DNA from: a bacterium
GTDB lineage: Bacteria > Bacillota_I > Bacilli_A > RF39 > UBA660
Direction of reading: 5' to 3'
Length of the DNA: 64,000 nucleotides
Assembly: GCA_030525085.1 (NCBI GenBank)
Contig: JAUNFK010000001.1
Location: 13,516 to 77,515, forward strand
Both the position numbers and the translations under genes were made by a program. Each line of letters begins with the position of its first letter. Within the stretch, counting starts at the first letter, position 1. Positions 40,622 to 61,093 of this stretch are shown here, piece after piece. Below the pieces are notes generated by a model that worked only from the letters and a program-made list of their open reading frames with translations, was not told the DNA's origin and made no database searches.

Positions 40622-40643
40622 AATCCCAACAGGGATTTTTTTA
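40622..40643 (+). terminator. Intrinsic terminator after the tRNA
   Basis: AATCCC-aaca-GGGATT followed by a T-run. Confidence 0.7.
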
Positions 40644-40702
40644 TTTATAAAAAATTTAAAAAGCATGATACAATATTACTAATAGATCTGGAGGAATGTA
40701 AA

Positions 40703-47136: not shown

Positions 47137-50100
47137 AAAAGGTTTTGGTATTAATATTAAGCATATTTACTCTTACGATAGGAGTAAACGCTGACAGCAA
47201 TTCAGGAATATGTGCTGGAAAAGAAATGACAGGCGAAGGTTATTGTAAACTTGATAGTGGAGTATATATTGGTAGAACTTCATTTGACCCATCATACAAT
47301 AACTTAACCAATGGCGATAAAGCTGTTTATTACAACTATAATGGAACCATAAATGAAAAACAACAAAATTTATATTGTATAGACGCTAACCTAACATCAC
47401 CAACAGGTTCAAGCTACAACTACGCTAGACCACTTAATCCAAGTAATTCTAGTTTTGATAGTATGTTAGCAAGAATGTATGTTTCTCTAGTAAATGCTGC
47501 AGTTTATGATTACAATAATGGAGCATGTTCAAATCTAGATTCATGTTTTACAAAATACTTACAAGCTGCAAACGTTGTTATGAGAGCGTTAGTTACAAGA
47601 CAAGGATATAATATTATTCCAGCATCTGACTGGGGATGTAGTGTAGGATTGCAAGCCGGTTTAGAAGAATATCGAAACATATACAAACAGTTAGAAGGAC
47701 TATCATATTCTGGAGTTGCTTTAAGACAAGACGGCCAATATGATTTAGTAAAAAAATGGTATAAAACAGCAAGTTCAACAACTAAATACGATGGTAGCAA
47801 ATATAAGATTACAGCAGAACTAAGTCATGACGAAGAAATTGTAACAGAATTTAATGGTGATAATTTTACGAAAATTGTTCCAGTTAAATTAGGCGGTTTA
47901 GATGATTTCAGAGAAGGATATGACACATGGAAAGTAACAAATCCTAAAGTTTCAATCACAGGATTCGAATGTACTGAAGGCTTAACATGTACATTAGAAA
48001 CAAGCAAATCAAACTTTAATTTAAATGACAACTTAATTGAAAAGTTCAGTGAAAATGAAATTACATTCTATGTTAAAGTAACTGGAAATATTAAACAATT
48101 AAAAAATAAGAAAAAGGGTTTGTTAACTATAAAAATAGATAAATACCATATTTTAGATACTGATAACCTAGCAATTTTAAGAGATTACGGAACAAAATCA
48201 CAAGGAATAAATGAATACTCAATACTAGGAAGACGTAAGATTTGCTATCAAAGAATGGTAGCTTTAATGCCAACAACTCCACAAAGAGTTGAACTAGAAA
48301 TAGATTTAGAAATACCACCATATTGTAAAACAGACGTAAGCGACTCAGGAGATAGAATTTATAAATTAGGAGATACTGAAGTTAGTATTGGTGATTACAT
48401 CAATGAAGGATGCTGTACTGATATCGATACAAGCAAACTTACAGACGAAGAAATGGAAGTATTCGTAGCAAACTGTGGCGGTGAAGATATAGTTGACTTA
48501 AAACAAGAATGTGGCGCTGGTTCATGTGAAGGGCACCAAGGAAATATACCAGGAATAAATATTGATTCATACGTAAAACAAGTATCTATGGACGCAACAA
48601 TGAGTAAAGTTTATAAATGGGAAAAAGCATATGAAACAGATGCCGATGAGTACGGAAAATTAACTAAAAATAACCTACAATATTGGAGAGACGATGAATT
48701 CGCAAGTGAATTAGAAAACAACAACTATTGTAAAATCTATACAAGTGAAGAAAATCATATGTACTATCCAACAACAACAACAGCAACAAGTGGTAGATTC
48801 TTTGTATTTGCACAAGGATCAGATGGACAATACTTACAACCATACGTTGATGGAAAAATCTATTCAACATTCCACACAGCATATAAATTATGGAAAAAAG
48901 ACTATCAAGAAGCATTAACGGCAGAAAAAGAAGCTTTCACAACGTGGCAAGAAGCAGCTAACCTTCAAGACGCAATAGACGATGCAATAGCTAACAAAGT
49001 AAACACAAAATGTGACTACACTCATGATGTATCAGTAAAGTGTGAAGATGGATCAGATGGATGTACAGAGACAATAACAGAACAAATAGACACCGTATAT
49101 TATAAAGGAAGTACTCAAAAAACTTATTATTACGGAACATATGACGAAAACTCTATAGACCCAGAAGATGTAGAATGGTACAGCAATTCAAATTGTGACG
49201 ACTACGTAGCAAAACCAGAAGACCCTCAAGCAAGTACTAAAAAAGGTCTTTATGAAACCGCAAAGGGAAAGAGAGAAGACCTCGAGGACCAAAAAACACA
49301 ATGTCAAGATGCTTCTAAAAGATATGTCTCTGAATGGAAATATATTTTAGAACCGGATTTAACATTCCACTACAACCAAAAGTATTACGATTCAGTAAGT
49401 GGCCAAACAAAATATCTTACAGAAGATATTACTATGGTTATAAGTGATCAAGCAGAAAAGTATTTTCCAAATGTAAGTACCAGAGTAACTAATCCAACAT
49501 CAACTAGTGGAAGCTGGAAAGGCGTTGACTACGACAAAGGTGAAGGCGACGAGTATGAAGGCCCTATATATGGTGGTGGTGATTTCAAAGTTAATGAGCC
49601 ATTTAAAGATGTTGATGAAACAGACAATGAAAATCACAATTACACAAGAAACTTCGAAGGAATAAAGCTTTACTATAGACCAGAAAAAGCATATTATAGT
49701 TTAGTTCCTACAGGCTTATTTAAAGTAAGTGAAGAAGTTCTTGATGCACAAAATACAATCGAAATTGGTTATGTATTTAATGTTCAGATTACAAATTACC
49801 AAGGTGAATATGAAACATGGTTTACTATTAAAAATAATGGACATCTAGAAATTGAACCATCGGGAAGCAATAAAAATCAAAGTAATGTTCAATATCGTAT
49901 AGATCAATATCTAGAAGAACATAAATCAGATTTCACAGACACATCAAACGGTATAACTTCAAATGCCTTCTCAAGTAAATGTATTTACTGTAATAGAGAA
50001 GTAATCTATGAAAGAGATTGTTTAACATGTGAAGATGACGAAGACTTTAAGCCAAAATATATTTATAGACCAATTAATCTAACAGATATTGACCCAAATA

Positions 50101-50498
50101 ACAGAGATGATTCCGGTGATTTAGGAAATAACTGGTCAAATCCAAAAGGTAAAGCAGCTGAGTCACGAATTAACGAGCTTGGTGCAAAAGATTCAACTTA
50201 CGATGATTACACAAAAGAAAATCTAGAATATAGATTTAAATTATCAACAAGTATGATGCAAGAAATTAAAAAATCAAATAAATCATCAAATTACTACGAT
50301 TTCAACTTACGTTGCAATGATTATGGTAAAGAATGTACAAGTTCATTTGTAACAGAATATGCAACAGATACAAGTGGCCGTAGTAAATATAAATATTATG
50401 TTAATGGACAATTTCAAGTTGGAACAATGGATAGCATTAGTGGACTAAATGGTAAGTATCCAGAACTGGAAGATTGTCCAGATAAGTTGTGTCCATAA
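47133..50498 (+). CDS. Large (1121 aa) secreted cysteine-rich protein, unknown function
   Basis: ATGA overlap with the upstream gene. The signal peptide is 'MKKVLVLILSIFTLTIGVNA'. I count about 29 Cys, many in close pairs ('GCC', 'CIYC', 'CLTC', 'CPDKLCP'). No LPXTG motif or TM anchor is present. Confidence 0.65.
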   Translation: MKKVLVLILSIFTLTIGVNADSNSGICAGKEMTGEGYCKLDSGVYIGRTSFDPSYNNLTNGDKAVYYNYNGTINEKQQNLYCIDANLTSPTGSSYNYARPLNPSNSSFDSMLARMYVSLVNAAVYDYNNGACSNLDSCFTKYLQAANVVMRALVTRQGYNIIPASDWGCSVGLQAGLEEYRNIYKQLEGLSYSGVALRQDGQYDLVKKWYKTASSTTKYDGSKYKITAELSHDEEIVTEFNGDNFTKIVPVKLGGLDDFREGYDTWKVTNPKVSITGFECTEGLTCTLETSKSNFNLNDNLIEKFSENEITFYVKVTGNIKQLKNKKKGLLTIKIDKYHILDTDNLAILRDYGTKSQGINEYSILGRRKICYQRMVALMPTTPQRVELEIDLEIPPYCKTDVSDSGDRIYKLGDTEVSIGDYINEGCCTDIDTSKLTDEEMEVFVANCGGEDIVDLKQECGAGSCEGHQGNIPGINIDSYVKQVSMDATMSKVYKWEKAYETDADEYGKLTKNNLQYWRDDEFASELENNNYCKIYTSEENHMYYPTTTTATSGRFFVFAQGSDGQYLQPYVDGKIYSTFHTAYKLWKKDYQEALTAEKEAFTTWQEAANLQDAIDDAIANKVNTKCDYTHDVSVKCEDGSDGCTETITEQIDTVYYKGSTQKTYYYGTYDENSIDPEDVEWYSNSNCDDYVAKPEDPQASTKKGLYETAKGKREDLEDQKTQCQDASKRYVSEWKYILEPDLTFHYNQKYYDSVSGQTKYLTEDITMVISDQAEKYFPNVSTRVTNPTSTSGSWKGVDYDKGEGDEYEGPIYGGGDFKVNEPFKDVDETDNENHNYTRNFEGIKLYYRPEKAYYSLVPTGLFKVSEEVLDAQNTIEIGYVFNVQITNYQGEYETWFTIKNNGHLEIEPSGSNKNQSNVQYRIDQYLEEHKSDFTDTSNGITSNAFSSKCIYCNREVIYERDCLTCEDDEDFKPKYIYRPINLTDIDPNNRDDSGDLGNNWSNPKGKAAESRINELGAKDSTYDDYTKENLEYRFKLSTSMMQEIKKSNKSSNYYDFNLRCNDYGKECTSSFVTEYATDTSGRSKYKYYVNGQFQVGTMDSISGLNGKYPELEDCPDKLCP

Positions 50499-50512
50499 GG
50501 GAGGTGTAGAAG

Positions 50513-51691
50513 ATGAAAGAAAGTCTTTGGGGTTATTGGTTAATTATACTAGGAATCTTTATTCTAAGTGTTATGCTTCTTTTACAAAACTACACCACAA
50601 CTAATGAACAAGACGTATACTTAATTAAAGAAATAACCGATGCGGCAATGGGTGACTCATTAGATTTAGCTCATTACCGTAAATACGGTGAAATAAGAAT
50701 TATTAAAGAAAAATTCGTTGAAAACTTTATTAGAAGATTTTCAGAGACTATAAATATTAATAAAAATTATGATATTTCATTTTATGATATTTATGAGGCT
50801 CCACCAAAAGTAAGTGTAAAAGTTGCAACTACAACTGGAGATATAACAATCGAAGGAACAACTGACTCTTACGCAGTAGTAAATAAATTAGATGCAATTT
50901 TAGAAGATTTAAGAACTCCAAATACACAGGAAGATAACTCATTCCCTAAAAATTACAAATGTACAAATTGTGAAATAAGTGATGATAATGCCAGAACCAC
51001 TTCACCAACTACAAAGAAAAACAATAGTGGAGAAAAGAAAAGCATAAAGCTAACATTTAATGGAATACAGCAAAATCCAAATCAAACATTTACATATAAC
51101 GGAACACAAATAAAAATGAGTTGTGCTTGTGGACCATTATCATTAGTTTCAATTATATCTTCAAAAGGTAAATCAAGTCAGTTAACAAATTATTTATCAA
51201 ATGGTGGATATAATACAAATAATATAACTGGTAGCGGTTCATCTGACCAAAAACTAGCTGCTGCAACATTCAAAAAAATGAGTGACATGGGACTTAATGG
51301 TCCAACAAATGGTAATGCAACAAGAGGAAGCACATGGTGTGGTTCAAATGGTAACTACACAAGTTCAAGCTTTGCGTCAATTGTTTCTAATTCTGGACTT
51401 TCAGTAACATCAAAAGGTGGCGGACTTAATGGAGGAAGAACAGGATTTGCTGATGATATCTATAATGCCCTAGATAGCGGATCACTAGTTATGGTTGCTT
51501 TGCCTTCAGGATATACAAAACAAGGTACAGGATTCGAAAGCACAAATGGCGGCCATTACATAGTAATATATGGCTATGACAAGGAAAAAAATACATTCTT
51601 ATTCTATGATGGATACAATGGAAGAGGTTTCCGCTCTGAATCTTGGGATGTAGTAAATTCAAGTGTAGTAGAATACATTGCAATTGGTTAA
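50513..51691 (+). CDS. Membrane-anchored protein with a C-terminal C39-like (papain-fold) peptidase domain
   Basis: GGGAGGTG RBS and N-terminal TM 'WGYWLIILGIFILSVMLLL'. The C-terminal domain has the Cys motif 'SCACGPLS' (nt 51121-51140) and 'GGHYIVIYGYD', as in Peptidase_C39_2-type domains. Confidence 0.55.
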   Translation: MKESLWGYWLIILGIFILSVMLLLQNYTTTNEQDVYLIKEITDAAMGDSLDLAHYRKYGEIRIIKEKFVENFIRRFSETININKNYDISFYDIYEAPPKVSVKVATTTGDITIEGTTDSYAVVNKLDAILEDLRTPNTQEDNSFPKNYKCTNCEISDDNARTTSPTTKKNNSGEKKSIKLTFNGIQQNPNQTFTYNGTQIKMSCACGPLSLVSIISSKGKSSQLTNYLSNGGYNTNNITGSGSSDQKLAAATFKKMSDMGLNGPTNGNATRGSTWCGSNGNYTSSSFASIVSNSGLSVTSKGGGLNGGRTGFADDIYNALDSGSLVMVALPSGYTKQGTGFESTNGGHYIVIYGYDKEKNTFLFYDGYNGRGFRSESWDVVNSSVVEYIAIG

Positions 51692-51696
51692 AATTT

Positions 51697-51724
51697 AAAA
51701 CTTGCTTAAATGCAAGTTTTTTTC
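51697..51724 (+). terminator. Intrinsic terminator separating the two accessory operons
   Basis: AAAACTTGC-ttaaat-GCAAGTTTT followed by a T-run. Confidence 0.7.
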
Positions 51725-51735
51725 TTTTGGAGTGC

Positions 51736-51764
51736 TTGAATTAAAAAAAAAATATTGTTATAAT
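51736..51764 (+). promoter_or_regulatory. Promoter of the cpaB/tadABC-like operon
   Basis: TTGAAT, 17-nt spacer, TATAAT, with an extended -10 TG (TGtTATAAT). Confidence 0.6.
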
Positions 51765-51801
51765 TAATTTATCATAGAGAAGAATAAAATGGAGGATTTA
51801 T

Positions 51802-52638
51802 ATGAACAATATTCTAGTTGGAATTAAAAGATTTTTAGGAAATAAAAACACAGTTACTATTATAGGTGTACTTGCTGGTATAGCAGTACTTTATATTGGT
51901 TATAACTGGCGTGTTAAACAAGCAATCGAACCAAAAAGTGTTCCTTATGCTAAACAAGAAATAGCTGCTAACACTCTTATAACAAGTGAAATGATTGGTA
52001 GTGTTAAAGTAAGTAAAAGTATGGTAGATTCAACAACTAACTTAGTTACAGCTAATAACCAAGTTGTTGGAAAATACGTATCATATGATACAACTATTCC
52101 AGAAGGAAGCTTATTTTATAAGAGCCAATTAATGACAGAAGAGCAATTACCAAACTATATTGTACGTAATATTCCAGAAGGATACACAGTATACAGTTTA
52201 GAAGTAAACTCACACTTAACATATGCTAATAGTATCATGCCAAACGATTATATTGACCTATACTTCAAAGCAATCGATGATGATAACAAAGTAATGTTTG
52301 CAAAAATGATTGAAAGTATCAAAGTAATTGCTGTAAAAGATTCAAGCGGTAAAAGCGTATTCTCATCAGAATCAAAAGATTCTCAACCAGCAGAATTAGT
52401 TTTCGCAGTACCAAATGATATGTTCTTACTTTTAAAGAAAGCAGATTATATTCGTAGTAACTCAATAGCTATTGTTCCAGTACCAAGAAATGCAAACTAC
52501 ACAGAAAATCCAAATGCAACTCAAGTAGCTAGTGAAGTTATTACAGACTTTATTCTTTCTAAAACAGCTTATATTCCTGATACTACAACAACTACAGGAG
52601 ACGGCACAAATAGTAATACAAATGAATCTGGAGAATAG
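51802..52638 (+). CDS. CpaB/RcpC-like pilus assembly protein (TM + SAF domain)
   Basis: N-terminal TM 'VTIIGVLAGIAVLYIGY', then a SAF-like stretch 'VPYAKQEIAANTLITSEMIGSVKV...VVGKYVSYDTTIPEGSLF'. Confidence 0.6.
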   Translation: MNNILVGIKRFLGNKNTVTIIGVLAGIAVLYIGYNWRVKQAIEPKSVPYAKQEIAANTLITSEMIGSVKVSKSMVDSTTNLVTANNQVVGKYVSYDTTIPEGSLFYKSQLMTEEQLPNYIVRNIPEGYTVYSLEVNSHLTYANSIMPNDYIDLYFKAIDDDNKVMFAKMIESIKVIAVKDSSGKSVFSSESKDSQPAELVFAVPNDMFLLLKKADYIRSNSIAIVPVPRNANYTENPNATQVASEVITDFILSKTAYIPDTTTTTGDGTNSNTNESGE

Positions 52639-52649
52639 AAGGTGGCAAA

Positions 52650-53777
52650 ATGACAGATGCTATATTTTCAGAGATAGATTTTGGACCCTTAAAAGAATTT
52701 TTAGAAGACGATAATGTAACCGACGTATCATATAGTAATGGTGGCCAGGTTTGGTTAAAAACTTTAGACAAAGGTGTTTATCAAGTAATTAGACCAGAAA
52801 TCAATAATCCGCTAATGGAAAAACTTGCTTTCCAATGTTCTAACGTAATGGGTAAAACATTTAACATGGCTCATCCATTTCTAGATGCTGAAAGTGCAGA
52901 ACTTCGTCTTAACTTTGTTCATGACAGTATTGCCACAAATGGAATTGCTTGCGTTATTCGTAAAACACCAGCAAAAATCCGTTTAAATAAAGACAAACTT
53001 CTAAACGAAAAATATTGTACACTTCAAGTACACGATTTCTTAATGAAATGTGTTGAAGGTCACTGCAATATTATCGTATCAGGAGAAACTGGTTCAGGTA
53101 AAACAGAACTTGTTAAATATTTAGCAAGTCATACTAAAGAAAACGAAAAAATAATAACAATAGAAGATACATTAGAACTTCACTTAGATAGAATTTTCCC
53201 AACAAGAGATATCGTTGCAATGAAAACAAATAACATTGCTTCATACTCAGACGTACTTGTTACTTGTATGCGTCAAAACCCAAAATGGATTTTACTATCA
53301 GAGGTTCGTAGTGCAGAAGCAGTTATGGCCGTACGTAACTCAATTTCATCTGGTCACAACATCTTATCAACAATCCATGCTGATAAAGCTGCAAGTATCC
53401 CAATGCGTATGTACTCACTACTAGAAACAAACCAAGATGTAAGCCAGTTCTTATCTACAATTCATAGATATGTTCAAATTGGTGTCTACGTTAAAGGTTA
53501 CATGAGTAAAGCTCTTGGCAGATTCCAACGTGAAATCATGGAAGTAACTGAGTTCTATGTAGATGAAAGTAATACACCATGCACTAATATCATTTATAAA
53601 AAAAGTATAGATGGAACATTTGCAATGAAAAATCCAACAAAATATCTTCTAGATTACTTATCAATTCAGGGAGTTGAGCTTCCTGCAGATACATTTAGAT
53701 TAGGAAATGTAAATAATGGGGGAGCCAATAATCAAGTCGACTTAAACGACCTTGAACTACCAAAAGCTGCAGCCTAA
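52650..53777 (+). CDS. TadA/CpaF-family secretion ATPase (T2SS/T4P/T4SS 'GspE' superfamily)
   Basis: Walker A 'VSGETGSGKTE' (nt 53082-53108), Walker B region 'PKWILLSEVRSAEA' and His box 'GHNILSTIHA'. Confidence 0.8.
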   Translation: MTDAIFSEIDFGPLKEFLEDDNVTDVSYSNGGQVWLKTLDKGVYQVIRPEINNPLMEKLAFQCSNVMGKTFNMAHPFLDAESAELRLNFVHDSIATNGIACVIRKTPAKIRLNKDKLLNEKYCTLQVHDFLMKCVEGHCNIIVSGETGSGKTELVKYLASHTKENEKIITIEDTLELHLDRIFPTRDIVAMKTNNIASYSDVLVTCMRQNPKWILLSEVRSAEAVMAVRNSISSGHNILSTIHADKAASIPMRMYSLLETNQDVSQFLSTIHRYVQIGVYVKGYMSKALGRFQREIMEVTEFYVDESNTPCTNIIYKKSIDGTFAMKNPTKYLLDYLSIQGVELPADTFRLGNVNNGGANNQVDLNDLELPKAAA

Positions 53778-53788
53778 GGAGGTGAATT

Positions 53789-54682
53789 ATGGAGTTAGTT
53801 CTATTATTATTAATTGCTTTATTCGTCATCTCATATCGTAAAAATGATGGTGAAAGTGTATATCAATTTATAGCAAAAGAAGTCACAGGACTTTATGATA
53901 AATATGCTCCATATAGTTTTAAAACAGTAAGAGAAAAATCAATCGAATTAGGAGAAGAATATACAACAAAGCAATATGTTACTCAAGTTGTTATATTTGG
54001 AGCAGCAGGGGCAGGAATCGCTTATCTATACTTCTATAGTATTATTTGGGCTATAGTATATGGAGTAGCAGCAATTGCATTTATTCCATATCTAGCATTC
54101 CTAAGATGTAAAAGAATTTATAGTGAGTTCTTATTCGAGCAAATTCAAGTATATACAACAAACGTTATCATGGAATTTAATACAACTCAATCCTTCGTTA
54201 AGGCTTTAGAAGGTGTAAGAGATTCCGGCGTATTAGAAAATCCTGTTCTAGATGACGTAAAACTTATGATAGATTTAAGTTACCAAAATGGTACAATTGA
54301 AGAATCAATTAACTATTTCAATCAAAAATATCCATACTATATGGTTAAAAATATGCATCAATTATTCTTACAAATCACAAGAGAAGGTGCAAAAGATTCA
54401 GGAGAATCTCTAGATAACATGTTATTAGATATCGATATGCTAGTTGAAGGTGTTTACCGTGATAAAATGGATAGAGACCAATATCACAAAAAATTCTTAA
54501 CATTCGGTTTTGCACTTTACTTATTAGTTATGCTTACTCAGTTCCTTCTAGGAACAGAAAGCTATATTTCAATGCTTGATAGATGGTATGTAGTGGTATT
54601 ACTCCATGGAATCATTTTAATAAATACTTACTTCTTATTAGATGGTGAAAAATACTATAACGAAAATACAGGAGGTGAGTAG
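53789..54682 (+). CDS. TadB-like (T2SSF-type) inner-membrane platform protein
   Basis: AGGAGGTGA RBS. TM, soluble helical domain and TM pair are laid out as expected for TadB. It lies directly after the ATPase gene. Confidence 0.55.
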   Translation: MELVLLLLIALFVISYRKNDGESVYQFIAKEVTGLYDKYAPYSFKTVREKSIELGEEYTTKQYVTQVVIFGAAGAGIAYLYFYSIIWAIVYGVAAIAFIPYLAFLRCKRIYSEFLFEQIQVYTTNVIMEFNTTQSFVKALEGVRDSGVLENPVLDDVKLMIDLSYQNGTIEESINYFNQKYPYYMVKNMHQLFLQITREGAKDSGESLDNMLLDIDMLVEGVYRDKMDRDQYHKKFLTFGFALYLLVMLTQFLLGTESYISMLDRWYVVVLLHGIILINTYFLLDGEKYYNENTGGE

Positions 54683-54684
54683 CG

Positions 54685-55479
54685 ATGATGATCGAAGTTA
54701 TGATACTTGGTATCATATTATATATAATTTTAGAGTACAATGGCAGCATTAGTACCAATAAATTTATTATGGACAACCAAGATATCTTTAAAAAACTAAA
54801 AGAAAAAGATTATGACTTCTATGCTAAAGCTAAATATGGTGATTCAATTGATGTAGAAGCCCTATTTAATGCAAGATTAAAAAATGGACTTATCGTTATA
54901 TTCCTATTAATATTTGCTTTTATCTCAAAGTTAAGCTACGTAAACTGTATATTTTCAGTAGTAGTTGGTTATGGTGTATATAAACTAAATTACCTTAAAC
55001 TTAAAAGACATTACAAAGCACACTTACATGAAATAGATGTTATGCTTCCATACTACTTAAAAAACTTAGAAATACTTGTACAACACTACACAGTACCAGT
55101 AGCACTAGGTAAATCAATCGATGAAGCACCACAAATATTCAGAAGTGGTCTTAATGAATTAATTGCAAAGATCAATGCTGGAGACTCAACAATCAACCCA
55201 TACATGGAATTTGCAAAAGACTTCCCAGTAAGAGATTCTATGCGTATGATGCGTTTGCTTTACAGACTTAGCTTAGGTAGTCAAGAAAGAAAACAAGAAC
55301 AATTATTAACTTTCTCAAGAAATATTTCTAACCTACAACAAAAAGCTCGTGAAACAAGATACAAAGAACGTTTAGAAAAGATGGAAAGTAAAACAATGGT
55401 AATGCTTATTTCAACCGGAGTAGGTGTAATGGTATTACTTATTATCTCAATCTTAATGCTATTTACAAGTAGCATGTAA
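54685..55479 (+). CDS. TadC-like (T2SSF-type) inner-membrane platform protein
   Basis: AGGAGGTGA RBS. The architecture matches the preceding gene. This is the second platform paralog, as in tadB-tadC pairs. Confidence 0.5.
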   Translation: MMIEVMILGIILYIILEYNGSISTNKFIMDNQDIFKKLKEKDYDFYAKAKYGDSIDVEALFNARLKNGLIVIFLLIFAFISKLSYVNCIFSVVVGYGVYKLNYLKLKRHYKAHLHEIDVMLPYYLKNLEILVQHYTVPVALGKSIDEAPQIFRSGLNELIAKINAGDSTINPYMEFAKDFPVRDSMRMMRLLYRLSLGSQERKQEQLLTFSRNISNLQQKARETRYKERLEKMESKTMVMLISTGVGVMVLLIISILMLFTSSM

Positions 55480-55530: not shown

Positions 55531-55559
55531 TTGACACATTAAATAAAATAATGTACAAT
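55531..55559 (+). promoter_or_regulatory. Near-consensus sigma-A promoter with no ORF behind it
   Basis: TTGACA (55531-55536), 17-nt spacer, TACAAT (55554-55559). An A/T-rich UP-like tract precedes it. Confidence 0.6.
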
Positions 55560-55562
55560 AAA

Positions 55563-55786
55563 ATTGTCTAATAGTAAAGGGTATATATTAGAACAATGAT
55601 TTGTGTGTATTTTAAAGAAATGCATATAAAAAATGTACTTTTATATCAGACAATTAAAAGTAATATTTTTACCAAAATTAAAGTGTTACTTAGTCATTAA
55701 GATATAGGTATAATTGTCTTATATATACAAATAGCATAGAAGCTTTGAAATATAAGTCTTATCTGCGATAGACATAACAATTGTTA
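55563..55786. repeat. Dispersed AATTGTCT / AGACAATT motif copies plus the palindrome TAACAATTGTTA
   Basis: AATTGTCT occurs at 55563-55570 and 55712-55719. The inverted copy AGACAATT lies at 55648-55655. A 12-nt perfect palindrome lies at 55775-55786. Confidence 0.7.
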
Positions 55787-55897
55787 CGGAGAAAGAATAC
55801 TCCAAAAGATAAGTGGTAAATATAATACTGATAATGTTATATTGATCCATTCTTTAAAACTGGAACTAGTTATTTTATCAGAATAACTAGTTTTTTT
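55566..55897 (+). ncRNA. Candidate ~330-nt non-coding RNA of unknown class
   Basis: Bounded by the promoter at 55531-55559 and the terminator at 55864-55897. The track lists no ORF of 60 aa or more on either strand. Internal complementary segments are present. Family is unknown. Confidence 0.4.
55864..55897 (+). terminator. Strong intrinsic terminator of the candidate ncRNA
   Basis: An 11-bp perfect stem, AACTAGTTATT-ttatcag-AATAACTAGTT, runs into TTTTTTT. Confidence 0.8.
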
Positions 55898-55945
55898 ATT
55901 ACCCAAAACTATTTAATTAATATCTCTTTTTTTATTACAATCTTA

Positions 55946-55999: not shown

Positions 56000-57136
56000 A
56001 TGATATGCGATTTATATGGTTCATATTTTAATTATAAAGTAAGAACATTAAACGAATATGCCTTGGCTCTAAGTAAAATAATAGGAATTAAAGATAACAA
56101 ACTATTTAGTAACCAAAGATTACGTAACGACTTCTGGCCATTTGTAATCAAAGACTATTTAAATAGATATACTGAATCTGTTCCACTAAATAAATACTTA
56201 GTAAAAGGTTTTTTAAATGAAAAAGAAATAACAAACTTTGACCTAGAAGAAGAAACAATGAGTATTATAAACTATCTTATTAAAAAGAACATTGTCCTAA
56301 AAATAGCTGAATACAAAGAAAGCATTATCCTAGCAAGTTTTATTTTAAAAATAGCAAATTACATTGATATTCTAACTAGTCCATTTACCAAAAATCAAAA
56401 CAACTATAGCACACTTTGTATAAGTGCTATCAATGAAGCAAACAAAGTAAAATATATTAGTTTAATAGACAATGGTAAAAAAGAAACAAATAACCTTTTA
56501 AATACAGTTAAAGAAAACGTTAAAAGAGAAAGAAAATTCTTTGAATCTTTAACTAATGTTAGCTCATTTAATAAATATATTGATATATCACAAGAAAACA
56601 TCTACTACTTAGCACAATATAACTATCGCATACCTAACTTAAATAAATATGATGAATACGCGGTAAAAGATATCTATGATAACCTAGGTGTAGATGATGC
56701 TTTCGCTCTTATTAGTGCAAATCTTATGGTAGCTAGTCTACTTAAACTATTCTCAATAAGAAAACCATTTAAGACATTATTCTTACCATTAAGAAAAAGC
56801 TTCTTAGATAATGAGAAAAACATTAAAGATTTAAGCCTACTATTTAAAGATAATAAATTACATAAAAATATTAAAATATTAATAAATTATGGCGAAGCAA
56901 CTAAAGAGATTATAAGCACACTTACAAGATACAAATTAGATTTCTACATTTACTGTAGTCGTAGTAGTGCAGCTACATCTGGAAAACTTATAGAAGACGC
57001 TAAGAATTACTTGGTTAGCAAAGAATTCTATGATAACAACAAGAATATTATATCTAAATGGAAAACCTTAGATATTAATATAATAAAAGAAGAGTTTGAT
57101 GGCATCGTAACAGACGCACGTCTGCTCATAGATTAG
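56000..57136 (+). CDS. Hypothetical cytoplasmic protein (gene 1 of operon)
   Basis: 378-aa ORF with no TM segment and no motif recognised. Confidence 0.55.
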   Translation: MICDLYGSYFNYKVRTLNEYALALSKIIGIKDNKLFSNQRLRNDFWPFVIKDYLNRYTESVPLNKYLVKGFLNEKEITNFDLEEETMSIINYLIKKNIVLKIAEYKESIILASFILKIANYIDILTSPFTKNQNNYSTLCISAINEANKVKYISLIDNGKKETNNLLNTVKENVKRERKFFESLTNVSSFNKYIDISQENIYYLAQYNYRIPNLNKYDEYAVKDIYDNLGVDDAFALISANLMVASLLKLFSIRKPFKTLFLPLRKSFLDNEKNIKDLSLLFKDNKLHKNIKILINYGEATKEIISTLTRYKLDFYIYCSRSSAATSGKLIEDAKNYLVSKEFYDNNKNIISKWKTLDINIIKEEFDGIVTDARLLID

Positions 57137-57152: not shown

Positions 57153-58652
57153 ATGGGAATTAACGGAGAGTTTTTTCTAAAATTTTTAGAGCCATTCTTT
57201 GGCGGACTAGTAGCATTTTTCAAAGCAATAGGTGCTGCACTAGTAAAAATATTTAATATTGCTACATACTTTGACATTATCAAAGAATATAAAGGAAAGG
57301 GAAGTAGCACAATAGTAATTATTCTAGGTGTACTTGCACTTATCATACTATTTGCTGTTATTGCACTATTAATATTCCTACTTGTTAGAAGAATAATTAA
57401 ATGGCGTCATAACGTAGCTCATCATGAAAAACTAGTTGAAGAAATTGAAAGCCTAAATAATGATGTAATTCGCCTAAGAAACGAAAATCAAAAATACATG
57501 GAAATGGCTGATCCTAATGCTGGCGTTGAATATGATGAAGATGGAAACATCACTAATAAACTTAGTGAAGGAGAAAGCAGATTCTTCAAACTTACTCAAA
57601 TTGATGAAAAATATAAAGACTATGTTGCTCCAGTGCTTAATGAAACAATTTCTCTAGAAGGTCTATGTGAAATGTTTAGAAACTACTCAGCTAGTCAAAT
57701 GAAACTATATTACTCAATAGATTTAATTAGATTATATATTGCATCATTTGCATCAAACAGATTAATTATTTTACAAGGTATTTCTGGTACAGGTAAAACA
57801 TCACTAGCATATGCATTTGGTAACTTCATCAAAAATGAAGCAGTTATCGCAAGTGTACAACCATCATGGAGAGATAGTACAGAACTATTTGGTTACTTCA
57901 ACGAATTTACAAAACGTTTCAATGAAACAGAAGTATTAACAAAAATGTATGAAGCAAAATACAATCCAAGCATTTTCATCACTCTATTAGATGAAATGAA
58001 CATCTCACGTGTTGAATACTACTTCGCACAAATGCTATCTATTCTAGAATTGCCTAGTACAGATGAATGGGTATTAGAACTAGTTCCAAACGCTTGGGAT
58101 AATGACCCTAAATTAATTGATAATGGACGTTTACAAATTCCAGATAACATGTGGTATATCGGTACAATCAATAACGATGACTCAACATTCATGATTACTG
58201 ATAAAGTATATGACCGTGCTATGCCAATCAACATTGATACTAAAGGAGTTGCTTTCGATGCCCCTAAAACTGATGCTCTAGACATCACCGCTAAATACTT
58301 CCTATCATTATTTGATAAAGCAAGAGCAGAGCACCCAGTAAGTAAAGAAACAATGGATAAAATAGCAAAAATGGATGACTATGTTATTGAACACTTCCGT
58401 TTAGCATTTGGTAATCGTATCGTAAAACAATTAAAAGACTTCGTCCCAGCATATATTGCTTGTGGTGGAGAAGAAATTGTTGCAGTAGACTACCTAATTG
58501 CAAATAAAATTTTAAGAAAATTTGACCAATTAAACTTAGCTTATATTCGTAATGAAATTGACGGATTTGAAGCTTACTTAGATGAATTATTTGGTGAAAA
58601 TAAAATGGTTGAATGTAAAGCATTCCTAGAAAGACTAAAAAAGACAATATAA
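57153..58652 (+). CDS. Membrane-tethered, coiled-coil McrB-like AAA+ GTPase (gene 2)
   Basis: Hydrophobic N-terminus including 'IVIILGVLALIILFAVIALLIFLLV' followed by 'RRIIKWRH', then the coiled coil 'EKLVEEIESLNNDVIRLRNENQKYMEM'. The rest is co-linear with E. coli McrB: 'LIILQGISGTGKTSLA' (Walker A, nt 57777-57800), 'LLDEMNISRVEYYFAQMLSILE' (Walker B, nt 57984-58001) and 'IPDNMWYIGTINNDDSTFMITDKVYDRA' (NxxD signature, nt 58161-58181). Confidence 0.7.
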   Translation: MGINGEFFLKFLEPFFGGLVAFFKAIGAALVKIFNIATYFDIIKEYKGKGSSTIVIILGVLALIILFAVIALLIFLLVRRIIKWRHNVAHHEKLVEEIESLNNDVIRLRNENQKYMEMADPNAGVEYDEDGNITNKLSEGESRFFKLTQIDEKYKDYVAPVLNETISLEGLCEMFRNYSASQMKLYYSIDLIRLYIASFASNRLIILQGISGTGKTSLAYAFGNFIKNEAVIASVQPSWRDSTELFGYFNEFTKRFNETEVLTKMYEAKYNPSIFITLLDEMNISRVEYYFAQMLSILELPSTDEWVLELVPNAWDNDPKLIDNGRLQIPDNMWYIGTINNDDSTFMITDKVYDRAMPINIDTKGVAFDAPKTDALDITAKYFLSLFDKARAEHPVSKETMDKIAKMDDYVIEHFRLAFGNRIVKQLKDFVPAYIACGGEEIVAVDYLIANKILRKFDQLNLAYIRNEIDGFEAYLDELFGENKMVECKAFLERLKKTI

Positions 58653-58674: not shown

Positions 58675-59778
58675 ATGAATATGGATTTCAGTTTACTAGT
58701 AAAAGATATTCCAAAAGACGATTTAGAACTTTTCTTAAAAAAGACTAATGGTACTTTTACTGCTAAAAAAAATGTTAATAAAGTAGCTGTAGATTATGGA
58801 TGGGTTGATGTTCTTAATGAATCCATCCCTTATCTTGATAATATCATTCGTAATCCAAGAAGATTCATTGCTCAAGAAGAAGATATTATTCCTATTGAAA
58901 AAACTAAAAAAGTATCTGAAGAATCTATTAAACACTTAGCAACTCATACTCAGTTAATTCAAGAAGTAGACGATGATGGCACTGTAAAACCATTAAAACT
59001 ACTTAATATTTTTAAAGAAGAAACAATTGACCTTTATGAAAACAGATTTATCTATTCATTAATTACTAATCTTTATGTTTTCTTAAGAAACCAACTTACA
59101 TATCAAGAAGAAGAACAAGAAAACAAAGAAGAAAAAAGAATCACATATGAAGCAAGTACTAAAATGAATGGAGAAGACGTTAACTTCTCAATGAGCATTT
59201 CTGCTAATAAATTTGATACGACTAAAGAAGATCCTAAACTAGTTGAAGAACGTAATGAAAAAATCAAAAACATTAAAGATATTCTAGAAGGCTTTATGGC
59301 TAGCAAATTCATGAAAACCATGGCAAATGCAACCCCAGTTAGAAGTCCAATTAGAAAGACAAACGTTATCTTAAAAGAACAAAACTTCATTAAAGCTCTA
59401 GCACTTTGGGAATTCCTAGAAAAATATCAAATTGAAAAACCTATAAAAAGAGAAGAAGAAGAAACAGTTCTAAATTATAAAAACCTAGAAAAAAATCTTG
59501 GCGTTACATATTACATGAACTACAATCTTCTAGAAGATACTGTAAAAAGTGGCGGACAAGATAAAATGTCTTACGGAACAGATATTATCTCATCAGTAAG
59601 ACAATATGCAAGAAAGTTTAATGTAAACGAATTAGATTTAAAAAAGGAAATTGAAAAAGAAATAAAATTAGCAACAAAATACAAAGAAGAACAAATTACA
59701 AGTATTAAAGGAATATACAAAACATTCCTTGATAGTAATAAATCAAGATTTGATAAAGCAATCTCTATACTTAAATAG
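58675..59778 (+). CDS. Partner protein in the McrC position; possible DUF2357/McrC-N-like, no nuclease motif seen (gene 3)
   Basis: AAGGAG RBS. 'ETIDLYENRFIYSLITNL' resembles the ENRF-type motif of McrC-like N-terminal domains. The C-terminal half is charged and coiled, and I could not find a PD-(D/E)xK pattern in it. Confidence 0.4.
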   Translation: MNMDFSLLVKDIPKDDLELFLKKTNGTFTAKKNVNKVAVDYGWVDVLNESIPYLDNIIRNPRRFIAQEEDIIPIEKTKKVSEESIKHLATHTQLIQEVDDDGTVKPLKLLNIFKEETIDLYENRFIYSLITNLYVFLRNQLTYQEEEQENKEEKRITYEASTKMNGEDVNFSMSISANKFDTTKEDPKLVEERNEKIKNIKDILEGFMASKFMKTMANATPVRSPIRKTNVILKEQNFIKALALWEFLEKYQIEKPIKREEEETVLNYKNLEKNLGVTYYMNYNLLEDTVKSGGQDKMSYGTDIISSVRQYARKFNVNELDLKKEIEKEIKLATKYKEEQITSIKGIYKTFLDSNKSRFDKAISILK

Positions 59779-59790: not shown

Positions 59791-61074
59791 ATGAGTAAGA
59801 AAAAGAAAACTAATCCAATAATTGGCCAGTCACGAAAAGAAATCGATTTAGTTAAATTTAATGAACAAACTGATAAAGAGCAAAAAGAACAAATTCAACA
59901 AATACTAGAAGAAATATATGGTGAAAATCTTAAAATTGATCGCAAATACGTAATGAAAGTTTTAAGACTTACATGGAATCCTAAAGATGATTTTACATAC
60001 CTACCATATAACTTGAAAGTAACAAAAGATAAATTAACCCTATCTTTTGAAGTTGTAAAAAAGAAACCAGTGCCAATCGGTTTGCTAATATTTCTAATTT
60101 GGTTATTCTTCTTTGCATTAATCGGAGCTACATACTATGGAATTAAATATATTAGTTTAATTAATTTAAATAAAGATATAGATGGTGATGGTATAGCAGA
60201 TATTAACATCGACTTAGACGGAGATGGTAAAGCCGATATCAATATAGATACTAATGGTGATGATAAACCAGACTTAAATGTTGATTATAGACACAATCAA
60301 AAAGCAATCTTTAATATCGATACCGATAATGATGGCTTTGCAGATTATAATATAATTAATGATGCCACTGAAAATCCAAAAGAATGCCGAATAAACTGCG
60401 ACACAGATGGTGATGGATGGCCAGAGATCAATATCGATTTAGATGGTGATGGAGTTCCAGACACTAACATTGATACTGACAAAGATGGCATACCAGACTT
60501 AAACTTAGACTTAGATGGTGACGGGAAATGTGACCTTATGTGTGACACAGATGGCGATAACAAATGTGATGAAAACTGTATTAAACCAGAAGATGGTGTT
60601 ATAGATGATAAAGGTAATATAAATCCAGGAGATGCTACAACAGGGCAAACTGGTAATGGAGATGCTGGAGCAAATACTCCAACACTTATGATTAACTTTG
60701 TTGATGGTGGAAAACTGATTGTTGATAACTTATATCCAGATGATCAACCGGGAATGCCACCTTTATATCCAACTAAAGTATTCTACGTTGAAAATTTAAG
60801 TACAATCTCACTAAAATATACTTTAAAACTTCATATCGACACTAATACATTTACATCAAGTAACCTTAAATATAAAATAGATGGTACAAACGGCGGTGCA
60901 AGTTTAGGATATCAAACTGTTCCACAAGGTACTAGCTATATAGTAAGAGATGTTATTATTGCTCCAAGAGTAACACACAAATATACAATGACAATCAAAC
61001 TTCAAGGAACTGGAACTGCACAAGATGAAGATCAAGGTAAAGAATTTGAAGGAAAAATAGAGATCGAATTATAA
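59791..61074 (+). CDS. Single-pass membrane protein with Asp-rich calcium-binding repeats and a C-terminal beta-sandwich-like domain (gene 4)
   Basis: AAGGAGG RBS. TM 'VPIGLLIFLIWLFFFALIGATYYGI' is preceded by 'KKKP'. DxDxDG repeats occupy aa 129-261. The C-terminal stretch 'TLMINFVDGGKLIVDNLYPDD...KYTLKLHID...FEGKIEIEL' resembles the N-terminal module of the protein encoded at 30619. Confidence 0.6.
   Translation: MSKKKKTNPIIGQSRKEIDLVKFNEQTDKEQKEQIQQILEEIYGENLKIDRKYVMKVLRLTWNPKDDFTYLPYNLKVTKDKLTLSFEVVKKKPVPIGLLIFLIWLFFFALIGATYYGIKYISLINLNKDIDGDGIADINIDLDGDGKADINIDTNGDDKPDLNVDYRHNQKAIFNIDTDNDGFADYNIINDATENPKECRINCDTDGDGWPEINIDLDGDGVPDTNIDTDKDGIPDLNLDLDGDGKCDLMCDTDGDNKCDENCIKPEDGVIDDKGNINPGDATTGQTGNGDAGANTPTLMINFVDGGKLIVDNLYPDDQPGMPPLYPTKVFYVENLSTISLKYTLKLHIDTNTFTSSNLKYKIDGTNGGASLGYQTVPQGTSYIVRDVIIAPRVTHKYTMTIKLQGTGTAQDEDQGKEFEGKIEIEL
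60175..60573 (+). repeat. In-frame coding repeats D-x-D-x-D-G-x-x-D (thrombospondin type 3/dockerin-like Ca-binding loops)
   Basis: Units include 'DIDGDGIAD', 'DLDGDGKAD', 'DTNGDDKPD', 'DTDNDGFAD', 'DTDGDGWPE', 'DLDGDGVPD', 'DTDKDGIPD', 'DLDGDGKCD' and 'DTDGDNKCD'. Confidence 0.8.
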
Positions 61075-61093
61075 AGCACAATAGTGCTTTTTC
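61073..61093 (+). terminator. Intrinsic terminator ending the four-gene operon
   Basis: AAGCAC-aata-GTGCTT followed by a T-rich tract. Confidence 0.6.

Follow-up and report, generated by a model that had tools for sequence, protein, structure and literature searches.

A predicted membrane-anchored McrB-like NTPase and its nuclease-free McrC-like neighbour in a chromosomal four-gene cassette

McrB-like systems and the A-B-C-D cassette

McrBC is the textbook GTP-driven restriction enzyme. Among its described relatives, Bell et al. 2024 (eLife 13:RP94800; PMC11090510) named the CoCoPALM systems, which combine an NxD McrB containing a transmembrane (TM) segment and a coiled coil with a McrC homolog, which 'usually' has a coiled coil as well, and with signal peptidases. 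CoCoPALM is placed there among the 'CoCoNuT-like systems' and its N-terminal domain is called homologous to FtsB; the description consists of one paragraph without analysis, and a literature search found no follow-up paper. In the CoCoNuT systems of the same paper (CnuB/CnuC, CnuH helicase and HEPN nucleases), long coiled coils are found in soluble proteins of 700-870 aa, and a helicase together with nucleases, HEPN or other, is always encoded alongside. In Staphylococcus aureus the McrB-family protein PcdA was co-opted for division-plane selection (PMC10602043).

The gene studied here, gene B, is located in a 64-kb stretch of DNA (the window, from whose first letter all positions are counted). 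The window is ordinary chromosome with genes for RNase J, SufB, MscL, FtsW and carbamate kinase. Gene B belongs to an A-B-C-D operon layout with intergenic gaps of 16, 22 and 12 nt, a leader and terminators at the ends:

55531..55559, + strand: promoter-like site (TTGACA, 17 nt, TACAAT), 11/12 matches in a consensus scan; a pattern match only, in a region that is overall not enriched for such sites
55751..55841, + strand: cis-regulatory motif RF03040 of Rfam ('PGK RNA') in the gap of 520 nt that precedes gene A, 79.7 bits (gathering score 50.8)
55863..55897, + strand: terminator-like hairpin (14 bp) with a U-run, directly after the PGK RNA; RNA fold of 55740-55905 with MFE -33 kcal/mol, z -2.9
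56000..57136, + strand: gene A, 378 aa, cytoplasmic, N-terminal helical domain and C-terminal EAL-like predicted fold
57153..58652, + strand: gene B, 499 aa, predicted single-pass membrane-anchored McrB-like AAA+ NTPase of the NxD branch; partial match to PADLOC PDC-M26A (2.1e-40)
58675..59778, + strand: gene C, 367 aa, protein with a McrC N-terminal domain (DUF2357) and without a nuclease domain
59791..61074, + strand: gene D, 427 aa, cytoplasmic N-terminal domain, one TM helix (aa ~94-112), Asp-rich repeat array and C-terminal beta-rich domain
61073..61090, + strand: terminator-like hairpin at the close of the A-B-C-D unit (consensus scan)

The PGK RNA motif is also present upstream of the gene A homolog in loci L001, L004, L007, L009, L010 and L011 and is absent upstream of the more distant cassettes. 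Together with the following terminator it gives a riboswitch- or attenuator-like layout before gene A. The name 'PGK RNA' is the Rfam label of RF03040; Weinberg et al. 2017 do not mention 'PGK' in the main text.

The pair B-C resembles CoCoPALM in that a putative GTPase of the McrB-like NxD branch with an N-terminal TM helix and a coil-like segment adjoins a DUF2357 McrC homolog. In addition, 61 of 92 loci with B orthologs (48-57% identity) have SipW-type signal peptidases as flanking genes. It differs in the short coil of B and in the surroundings: the window has no signal peptidase within 64 kb and has instead gene A upstream, gene D downstream and the PGK RNA leader. The A-B-C-D unit of the window is a reduced cassette variant without signal peptidase. 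The association with EAL or EAL-like proteins, the N-out/C-in topology and the high conservation described below are not part of the CoCoPALM paragraph of Bell et al. 2024 (PMC11090510). The first-pass annotation of this DNA had suggested a comparison with the CoCoNuT literature. This was the right lead, but the existing CoCoPALM name and the nuclease-free partner had been missed. The NxD signature seen in B is that of the CoCoNuT/CoCoPALM branch.

With E. coli McrBC (PDB 6HZ4, 6UT6, 7VSR) the pair shares Walker A, Walker B, the sensor Asn, an Arg finger and a DUF2357 partner. In contrast to McrB, B has a TM helix and a coil in place of the DNA-reader domain, NxD instead of NxxD and one Arg instead of RRR. 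Its partner C lacks the PD-(D/E)xK nuclease, and B is chromosomal, highly conserved and located among envelope genes and not among restriction-modification genes. The NxD branch is shared with CoCoNuT, whose McrC homologs are also often without an active nuclease, and the AAA+ core of B is ~35-45% identical to long-coiled-coil CnuB-like proteins; unlike CoCoNuT proteins, B is anchored by a TM helix and its coil spans ~28 aa (~4 heptads), and neither a nuclease nor a helicase was found among the neighbours. PcdA is comparable as a McrB-family NTPase of the Bacillota that moved from restriction to cell biology and lost the nuclease partnership, but it kept its EVE reader domains, its Walker A/B motifs are degraded, the C-terminal helical bundle is lost and it has no McrC-NTD partner (PMC10602043), whereas in B the motifs are intact, a TM helix serves as anchor and the McrC-NTD partner is conserved.

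AAA+ core and membrane anchor of gene B

The open reading frame of gene B has an ATG start, its boundaries are exactly 57153-58652 (+), and a Shine-Dalgarno-like GGAAGAGG is located upstream of the start. The following elements were identified within the gene:

57306..57386, + strand: TM helix (aa 52-78), Kyte-Doolittle 19-residue mean 3.59
57387-57410, + strand: basic patch RRIIKWRH directly after the TM helix
57414..57497, + strand: short heptad (coiled-coil-like) segment, aa 88-115, heptad score z ~2.4, weak Geminin coiled-coil matches
57777..57800, + strand: Walker A GISGTGKT (aa 209-216); G209, G212, G214 and K215 invariant in 50 relatives
57984..58001, + strand: Walker B LLDEMN (aa 278-283); D280 invariant and E281 at least 90% conserved in 50 relatives
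58170..58181, + strand: signature N340-N-D342-D343, family pattern N-x-D-[DE], a mark of the NxD branch; N340 and D342 invariant
58209..58223, + strand: YDRAM at the place of the McrB 'RRRF' arginine-finger block; R355 the sole Arg kept, invariant, aligned with the middle Arg of RRRF by hhalign

A block-for-block alignment of B to E. coli McrB had been proposed before, and it was reproduced by phmmer, by a family profile and by hhalign. The strings quoted for B on that occasion are present (LIILQGISGTGKT, aa 204-216, and IGTINNDDSTFMITDKVYDRA, aa 336-356), but the Walker A motif of E. coli McrB had been quoted incorrectly as GCGKT and reads GPPGVGKT in the phmmer alignment. Using the single sequence of B against the PDB, phmmer placed McrB first (E 4.8e-4, query residues 199-372) and listed no other AAA+ protein; for the B-family profile of 50 sequences McrB was the sole match in the PDB (E 1.4e-5). 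Comparison of the 50-sequence profile with the McrB core by hhalign resulted in a probability of 97.4% and an E value of 1.3e-11 over 166 columns, and the alignment spans the Walker A, Walker B, N-x-D and Arg blocks. Judged by these searches, E. coli McrB is the closest and the only solved relative of the B core.

Pfam searches with the single B sequence yielded AAA_5 with E 0.012 and 16.1 bits, which is not significant at a cut-off of 22 bits, and AAA with 17.7 bits, also under the curated cut-off. The family membership of B is therefore assigned at the profile level, from the hhalign result and from the 40 of 50 B relatives that match AAA_5 at E <= 0.05 (best 1.2e-8). Thus, a match to AAA_5/McrB models as expected in the first-pass annotation is found for the relatives and in the hhalign comparison, but not for the single sequence in Pfam.

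The McrB signature had been reported as a conserved NxxD element in the form N-N-D-D. The motif is present, but as the NxD variant: among 138 B-family representatives with at most 50% mutual identity, position N+2 is Asp in all 138 sequences, while position N+3 is D in 102, E in 30, Q in 3 and K, G and A in 1 each. As the invariant Asp is located at N+2 and N+3 varies, the motif of B belongs to the NxD branch of McrB, and it matches the definition of this branch by Bell et al. 2024 (PMC11090510, section 7). The reading of the 'RRRF' block as YDRAM in B was correct; the block is reduced to one invariant Arg. According to these motifs B is a McrB-like AAA+ protein with an intact P-loop core comprising Walker A, Walker B, sensor Asn and one Arg finger. 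By analogy with McrB, specificity for GTP and formation of a ring are predicted for B.

The N-terminus had been described as hydrophobic segments followed by a positive patch and a coil. This order was found with one strong TM helix, the patch and a short coil, whereas residues 15-37 are weakly hydrophobic (Kyte-Doolittle 1.85 versus 3.59 at aa 52-78). All 90 distinct B homologs have one strong TM helix, and all 90 show a positive-inside asymmetry, with a mean of 5.0 Lys+Arg in the 15 residues after the helix versus 1.3 in the 15 residues before it. According to the positive-inside rule, the N-terminal tail of ~50 aa would be directed outward and the coil and the NTPase would be located at the cytoplasmic face. 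The relative P0128 has a signal peptide and an ectodomain in front of the TM helix, followed by RRRKKK and the AAA+ core, and this layout indicates the same N-out/C-in arrangement, which we infer for B. Hydrophobicity and the Lys+Arg asymmetry thus bear out the proposal that B is anchored in the membrane by its N-terminus and that its ATPase lies on the positive (cytoplasmic) side.

The 3-4-3-4 hydrophobic pattern of aa 88-115 has a score of 0.60 versus 0.31 +/- 0.12 for shuffled sequences (z ~2.4), so the coil is real but short, with ~4 heptads. Residues 1-140 consist of the TM helix, the basic patch, the short coil and an acidic linker; domain searches detected no DNA-reader domain in this part of B, and there is no room for one, in agreement with the earlier claim that B has no DNA-binding domain. 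Of the 'FtsB-like' N-terminus of CoCoPALM, B shows a TM helix followed by a short heptad segment. The homology to FtsB/DivIC itself was not reproduced, as a single protein among the 50 family members matches the Pfam DivIC model (E 0.012). Overall, the earlier observation of a McrB-family core with a membrane N-terminus, a coil and no DNA reader was confirmed. Of its interpretation the core, the anchor, the coil, the missing reader and the reduced RRRF block stand, but the reading of the motif as NxxD does not.

Partner genes, neighbourhoods and distribution

Gene C matches Pfam DUF2357 (PF09823) with E 2.2e-8 and 34.1 bits (cut-off 23.3), and nearly all of the best 120 of 1282 gene C homologs carry PF09823. 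No nuclease family was matched by C in domain-profile searches (Pfam, NCBIfam, PADLOC). In the AF2 model of C the C-terminal half (residues 236-366) is helical with a single strand, so a PD-(D/E)xK core is not predicted; the same model (moderate, pTM 0.46) contains long helices at residues 107-147 and 319-366. A Foldseek search of this model against the PDB yielded nothing at E <= 0.001. As McrC was not recovered, the link of C to McrC is the Pfam DUF2357 match by itself. The C-family profile found generic coiled-coil proteins only in the PDB, and the clostridial C orthologs have long K/E-rich coiled coils. C adjoins B in 88 of the 92 loci. With a partner lacking a nuclease, a restriction function of B-C is unlikely.

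Gene A matched no model in Pfam, NCBIfam and PADLOC. Its AlphaFold2 model (pLDDT 88.4, pTM 0.87) was compared with the PDB using Foldseek, and the best 50 matches were all EAL domains, with a probability of 1.0 for nearly all of them and E values down to 9e-5; EAL domains of FimX (PDB 4FOU, 4F3H and others) were among the best. At the sequence level, hhalign of the A family with canonical EAL proteins from related loci gave a probability of 0.1%, and the A-family profile found nothing in the PDB; the A2-cluster HMM matches gene A at 2.9e-7. From the model we predict with confidence an EAL-like (c-di-GMP phosphodiesterase/receptor) fold for gene A, in which catalytic motifs are not recognisable. 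As A lacks both sequence-level EAL similarity and recognisable catalytic motifs, binding of a nucleotide by A is speculative. FimX is a degenerate EAL receptor which controls type IV pilus assembly (pilus ATPases). The likeness to FimX is that the EAL-like protein A is encoded beside an NTPase linked to surface-fibre genes, but A shows no detectable sequence similarity to FimX and its partner NTPase is McrB-like and not a PilB-type ATPase.

The repeats of D form an expandable Asp-rich array of the DxDxDG type with conserved Cys pairs, as seen in the hydrophobicity profile and the alignment, and they weakly match Asp-rich repeats of MSCRAMM adhesins. The c15 HMM matches D at 2.5e-8. D is present in 28 of the 92 loci, always at position +2.

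All neighbourhood counts refer to 92 distinct loci related to gene B. The SipW-type signal peptidase of 61 of these loci (TIGR02228, 92 bits, cut-off 51.85) is found in 1 of the 28 A-B-C-D loci, and tblastn and HMM searches revealed no SipW-like ORF in the window; for this reason the link of the cassette to 'pilus assembly' is borrowed from relatives. An EAL or EAL-like gene is present in 74 of the 92 loci (A or A2 in 54, canonical EAL with E 1.7e-50 in 20). The secreted neighbours c3 and c7 have an invariant A-W-F motif after the signal anchor. TasA/camelysin was considered as identity for c3, c7 and D, but Pfam, NCBIfam and PDB profiles yielded no match; without detectable similarity to TasA or to a solved structure, these proteins are not called TasA homologs. 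A Tad-like pilus operon (51802-55479) adjoining the cassette was rejected as the 'pilus' partner. It is adjacent in the 4 closest loci only, hence its association with the cassette is not conserved.

Within the cassette, B is conserved best: its identity to the counterpart in locus L007 is 88%, whereas A reaches 63%, C 75% and D 69%, and the neighbouring carbamate kinase 67%. The synteny of B with neighbouring housekeeping genes is kept among close relatives. In at least 592 species genomes of the Bacilli and Clostridia, B retains a full-length identity of at least 50%. A search of 50,697 phage and 72,556 plasmid records yielded no match that extends over 80% or more of B. The B-C pair is kept across both classes near SipW-type peptidases, secreted proteins with the A-W-F motif and EAL or EAL-like proteins.

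Possible functions of the B-C pair

On balance we favour, with some reserve, the view that B is the McrB-like subunit of a nuclease-free CoCoPALM-type module which descends from McrBC and acts at the envelope and not in phage defence. B is likely a nuclease-free NTPase at the inner face of the membrane with a role in the assembly of surface fibres or of the envelope. By homology with McrB, B would form a hexameric ring, and a stalk or hairpin of protein C may enter this ring and stimulate the hydrolysis of NTP. As there is neither a DNA reader nor a nuclease, the motor presumably does not cut DNA. It would more probably remodel or gate a membrane-associated partner when a surface fibre or envelope structure is assembled, anchored or controlled. 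For most lineages this partner may be the SipW-dependent secreted proteins, and in the A-B-C-D unit of the window the membrane protein D with its presumably extracellular Asp-rich repeats. Protein A may provide an input of the cyclic-dinucleotide type, by analogy with FimX, and the expression of A-B-C-D appears to be gated by the 'PGK RNA' leader with its own terminator.

A more specific version of this envelope reading is tentative, and we would put it somewhat below an even chance: B-C would be an exapted restriction motor, a vertically inherited, near-core and nuclease-free McrB6-McrC machine on the inner face of the membrane that is gated by an EAL-like second-messenger sensor (here also by the PGK leader) and drives or licenses the assembly or anchoring of SipW-dependent fibres or D. 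If this is true, B-C would represent a new class of envelope-assembly NTPase. B-C has lost the DNA reader and the nuclease of McrBC but keeps its motor and activator under strong purifying selection. An envelope machine of this type would be the second immunity motor recruited to cell biology after PcdA, and a far more widespread one, and it would point to a new step in the assembly or regulation of SipW-dependent fibres in abundant, mostly uncultured gut Bacillota. The name CoCoPALM has been known since 2024; the new handles are the EAL-like partner, the topology, the SipW-less A-B-C-D unit and the PGK RNA leader.

The alternative that fares best is anti-phage defence, in which B-C would be a membrane-tethered sensor similar to McrBC or CoCoNuT that triggers abortive infection or blocks entry through a non-nuclease effector, for example D or a perturbation of the membrane. 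The descent of the module from McrBC and the inclusion of CoCoPALM in the 'CoCoNuT-like systems' (Bell et al., PMC11090510) are consistent with this, and the closest soluble relatives of B are located in CoCoNuT-type defence-like operons. Long-coil relatives, e.g. in Paenibacillus gallinarum (L124), lie beside an Upf1-like helicase (MkoA-like, 9e-110), a Ser/Thr kinase, a PP2C phosphatase and a weak CARF/HEPN-like protein. The strongest database match of B is also a phage-defence candidate, PDC-M26 of PADLOC (protein A model PDLC04547). However, the best stretch of this match covers ~120 of 724 profile positions (312-431) and is confined to the AAA+ core (aa 182-300 of B), and every architectural variant of the wider B family matches PDC-M26A at a similar level. 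A, C and D match no PADLOC model, the other PDC-M26 components included, and no nuclease, HEPN domain or helicase was found in or near the cassette. The conservation of B, which exceeds that of neighbouring housekeeping genes and extends over two bacterial classes at a full-length identity of at least 50%, the synteny retained in close relatives and the lack of full-length copies on the phage and plasmid records searched all argue against defence, and the conserved partners of B are envelope and secretion genes. We therefore regard a defence function as unlikely. If it applied nevertheless, B-C would amount to a form of McrBC that is tethered to the membrane and works through some effector in place of the nuclease.

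A much less probable alternative is a factor for cell division or septum formation, in which an FtsB/DivIC-like TM helix and coil would be fused to a co-opted McrB NTPase in parallel to PcdA. It draws on the FtsB homology stated for the N-terminal domain by Bell et al. (PMC11090510), on the precedent of a McrB-family protein recruited to division in the Bacillota (PcdA, PMC10602043) and on an FtsW/RodA gene (43552-44637) 13 kb upstream of B. Against it stands the single DivIC/FtsB match among the 50 family members. In FtsB the coiled coil comes after the TM helix and lies in the periplasm. The topology of B would be opposite to this, with the coil on the side of the NTPase, which must be cytoplasmic. 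Furthermore, B differs from PcdA in its intact Walker motifs and in the McrC-like partner encoded next to it, and none of the conserved neighbours in the 92 loci is a divisome gene. It is hardly credible that B is a generic AAA+ (MoxR/dynein-like AAA_5) ATPase with a superficial resemblance to McrB and a coincidental DUF2357 neighbour, because against the Pfam AAA and AAA_5 scores below the curated cut-offs for the single sequence stand McrB as the sole PDB match of the family profile, the hhalign alignment through all four motif blocks and the DUF2357 gene beside B in 88 of 92 loci.

The lineages in the near-core reading of B-C are gut Bacillota, namely Bacilli, Erysipelotrichaceae, Acholeplasmataceae, Oscillospiraceae and Christensenellaceae. 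One of the cultured carriers of the B-C pair is Acholeplasma granularum ATCC 19168 (locus L160).

McrB-type core and membrane anchor of gene B

Gene B, which starts behind a good ribosome-binding site, belongs to a cassette of four consecutive ORFs separated by 16, 22 and 12 nt, with a terminator-like hairpin 3' of gene D.

56000-57136, gene A
57153-58652, + strand, gene B, ORF of 499 aa
58675-59778, gene C, Pfam DUF2357
59791-61074, + strand, gene D

The first-pass annotation had aligned B block for block with E. coli McrB, and the strings it quoted were located at aa 204-216 and aa 336-356. Using phmmer against the PDB, E. coli McrB was the top match of B (E 4.8e-4, query residues 199-372) with no other AAA+ protein listed beside it, and a profile built from 50 B relatives had McrB as its sole PDB match (E 1.4e-5). 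Alignment of this family with the McrB core by hhalign (97.4% probability, E 1.3e-11) covered 166 columns, which span the Walker A, Walker B, sensor Asn and Arg-finger blocks. The block alignment was thus reproduced, and B carries an intact P-loop core of the McrB type. The expected match to McrB/AAA_5 HMMs was obtained at family level only, because B alone stays under the curated Pfam cut-offs (AAA 17.7 bits, AAA_5 16.1 bits), whereas 40 of the 50 relatives have an AAA_5 match (1.2e-8 for the strongest). We consider the identity of B as read here to be highly probable.

A pairwise ungapped alignment with McrB is compatible with the earlier reading of N-N-D-D as a retained NxxD element, but the family counts contradict it. 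All 50 relatives keep N340 and D342, but D343 varies; in 138 representatives of clusters with at most 50% mutual identity, N+2 is Asp throughout (138/138), whereas N+3 is D in 102, E in 30, Q in 3 and K, G or A in one each. Judged from these sequences, the signature motif of B is NxD, not NxxD, in agreement with the NxD branch of McrB proteins as defined by Bell et al. YDRAM does stand in place of the 'RRRF' block, as described before, and leaves one Arg, R355, which is invariant in the family.

Hydrophobic segments, a positive patch and a coil had been assigned to the N-terminus. A very hydrophobic helix is present at aa 52-78 (Kyte-Doolittle mean 3.59), whereas aa 15-37 are marginally hydrophobic and contain lysines; one strong helix was found in all 90 distinct B orthologs from related loci. 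The positive patch is evident in these orthologs, with a mean of 5.0 Lys+Arg (net charge +4.2) in the 15 residues after the helix compared with 1.3 (net -0.5) in the 15 residues before it. According to the positive-inside rule, this asymmetry places the coil and the NTPase in the cytoplasm and an N-terminal tail of ~50 aa outward. B is membrane-anchored with the AAA+ core on the positive side. In relatives of the type of P0128, a B-related protein, the same TM-RRRKKK-AAA+ order comes after a large ectodomain with a signal peptide in front, which is consistent with a tail-out, core-in orientation. At aa 88-115 a 3-4-3-4 hydrophobic pattern with Asn in one core position scores 0.60 for heptads (shuffles 0.31 +/- 0.12), so that a coil is plausible, but with a length of about four heptads only.

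Partner genes and related CoCoPALM loci

Gene C matches DUF2357, the McrC N-terminal domain of Pfam, above the cut-off (E 2.2e-8) and no other family; PF09823 occurs in nearly all of the 120 C homologs listed, out of 1282 found. The AlphaFold2 model of C (pLDDT 74, pTM 0.46) consists of long helices and two long beta-hairpins. Its C-terminal half contains a single strand and therefore no PD-(D/E)xK core; a nuclease is absent from C. Because Foldseek of this model against the PDB returned nothing significant, the link to McrC is based on sequence only, and on this basis C is classified as a McrC N-terminal-domain protein without nuclease, operonic with B.

Gene A evolves fast (113 homologs) and has no family match. 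Its confident AlphaFold2 model (pLDDT 88.4, pTM 0.87) retrieved EAL domains as all of its top 50 Foldseek PDB matches (Bd1971, MorA, RocR, FimX and others), nearly all with probability 1.0, E down to 9e-5 and a target-normalised TM of about 0.5. Since these matches are exclusively EAL domains and sequence-level similarity to EAL proteins was not detected, A is predicted to have an EAL-like fold with degenerate motifs.

Protein D begins with a conserved cytoplasmic domain of ~90 aa and one TM helix, followed by an array of DxDxDG-type Asp-rich tandem repeats of variable length with conserved Cys pairs. Through expansion of this array its relatives range from about 420 to ~700 aa (L021 3597-5621, L022 3857-5950 and L023 12621-14288, all related loci); length-variable repeat arrays are often seen in cell-surface repeat proteins. 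The conserved beta-rich C-terminal domain recurs in cluster c15, a group of secreted proteins, and in the window ORF 30619-32511 (+). This ORF (630 aa) lacks a Pfam match and strongly matches cluster c15 (7e-108); in several related loci a member of this cluster immediately precedes A-B-C-D.

The name CoCoPALM was given by Bell et al. (2024, eLife 13:RP94800; PMC11090510) to systems that combine an NxD-type McrB GTPase carrying a TM helix and coiled coil with an McrC homolog and signal peptidases; they deferred a fuller treatment to a later paper, and our literature search found none. The architecture of B has already been noted and named and is therefore not categorically new, and it is without prior analysis. 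We checked the published description against 92 distinct loci. A DUF2357 gene adjoins B in 88 of them, and archaeal/SipW-type signal peptidases (TIGR02228, 92 and 78 bits, cut-off 51.85) occur in 61, where they usually occupy positions -1 and +2 relative to B-C. The remainder of the SipW loci is made up of secreted proteins (clusters c3, c4, c7, c8 and c11) in which the signal anchor is followed by an invariant A-W-F motif. Canonical EAL-domain proteins are encoded in 20/92 loci (E 1.7e-50). The HMM of A2, a cluster that takes the position of A in a second architecture, matches gene A at 2.9e-7, and on this ground an A-type or canonical EAL gene was counted beside B-C in 74 of the 92 loci, an association absent from the published description (PMC11090510). 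Conserved neighbours of envelope, secretion and EAL type thus accompany B-C, in the following arrangements.

Clostridia: EAL-c4-c3-SipW-B-C-...
Bacilli/Erysipelotrichaceae: SipW-c8-SipW-c11-A2-B-C-SipW-c7
Window: A-B-C-D (28 loci, signal peptidase in 1/28)

Sequence identity of 48-57% to the SipW-flanked CoCoPALM GTPases clearly marks B as their ortholog. The published systems include signal peptidases, whereas no SipW-like ORF is present in the whole 64-kb window; the local system is thus a peptidase-less variant which lacks this one feature.

A different layout occurs in L121 (7785-15838) and some 12 further Lachnospiraceae loci: two TM-anchored B paralogs lie either side of one DUF2357 gene, and downstream of them come genes for a surface-antigen I/II C2-like domain protein and a transglutaminase-core membrane protein. 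Six Acholeplasmataceae / Izemoplasmatales loci (L108, L118, L128, L144, L152, L153) have a canonical EAL-cluster gene and a ~2000-aa protein directly before B-C, with no signal peptidase in view. The cultured type strain Acholeplasma granularum ATCC 19168, a possible experimental host, carries a full EAL-EAL-c4-c3-c3-SipW-B-C-SipW-c3 locus (L160, NZ_JAFR01000011.1 62355-79386). A CoCoNuT-type context was seen in Paenibacillus gallinarum (L124, 274-11907), where long-coiled-coil B relatives occur with a PP2C phosphatase, a Ser/Thr kinase, an Upf1-like SF1 helicase (PADLOC MkoA-like at 9e-110), a 522-aa protein with a weak CARF/HEPN match and a DUF2357 + zinc-ribbon protein.

Surface motor, defence or division

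By analogy with McrBC structures (Nirwan 2019, Niu 2020), B would form a hexamer at the inner membrane face, and a stalk of C would enter the ring and stimulate NTP hydrolysis. We speculate that, in the assembly of surface fibres or the envelope, this motor acts on a partner at the membrane by remodelling or gating it; candidates for this partner are the secreted proteins that depend on SipW for most lineages and D for the lineage of the window, and A might provide a second-messenger-type input, as in FimX. We hold this functional reading of B-C only tentatively, as one real possibility.

A membrane-tethered abortive-infection system appears unlikely. It would agree with the best HMM match of B, the PADLOC candidate PDC-M26A (2.1e-40), and with soluble long-coiled-coil relatives of B in CoCoNuT-like operons. 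However, the best stretch of the PADLOC match covers about 120 of 724 profile positions, A, C and D have no PADLOC match, and no nuclease or helicase lies near the cassette. Genes for RNase J, SufB, MscL, FtsW, oligopeptidase F, carbamate kinase and spore germination mark the window as ordinary chromosome, and within the cassette conservation is highest for B, which also exceeds the neighbouring carbamate kinase (88% versus 67% identity to L007); compared with L001, B is 76% and A, C and D are 45-60% identical. Full-length B orthologs of at least 50% identity were found in at least 592 species genomes of Bacilli and Clostridia, and in the 50,697 phage and 72,556 plasmid records searched no match extended over 80% or more of B. 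With this conservation, chromosomal setting and lack of a full-length copy in these records, a vertically inherited cellular machine fits better than a mobile immune gene.

A division factor of the PcdA or FtsB kind is even less probable: only 1 of 50 B family members has a match to the Pfam DivIC model, the predicted topology of B is opposite to that of FtsB, and the conserved neighbours include no divisome gene. That B is a generic AAA+ protein is hardly credible.

In the phage collection B has just one notable match, on the unannotated 'Bacteriophage sp.' contig MT835511.1 from human gut (40037-41104), whose AAA+ core shares 34% identity with B across 58% of the B length.

Leader RNA and upstream region

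Gene A is preceded by a gap of 520 nt, in which a near-consensus promoter-like site is the first element and is followed by two structured elements.

55751-55841, + strand, Rfam RF03040 'PGK RNA' cis-regulatory motif (79.7 bits, gathering score 50.8)
55863-55897, + strand, intrinsic-terminator-like hairpin of 14 bp, then a U-run, directly after the PGK RNA

The PGK RNA motif has been reported from gut metagenomes, in front of phosphoglycerate kinase genes. RF03040 has a single match in the 64-kb window. The motif occupies the same position upstream of the gene A homolog in six loci (L001, L004, L007, L009, L010, L011), even where genes further upstream differ, and is absent from more distant cassettes. 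The variant in the window dispenses with the signal peptidase and has in addition a protein of predicted EAL-like fold, the Asp-rich membrane protein D and a structured leader RNA.

Upstream of the cassette, 47133-55479 (+) contains a Tad/Flp-like pilus gene set, which adjoins the cassette in the four closest genomes only. A 1121-aa secreted protein without family match and the first gene below precede this set.

50513-51691, + strand, DUF5411 + C39-like peptidase protein
51802-52638, + strand, RcpC/CpaB-like gene
52650-53777, + strand, T2SSE ATPase gene
53789-55479, + strand, two polytopic membrane protein genes

In the related locus L023 a group II intron (domains D1-D4; 5748-6047) precedes the cassette by about 3 kb.
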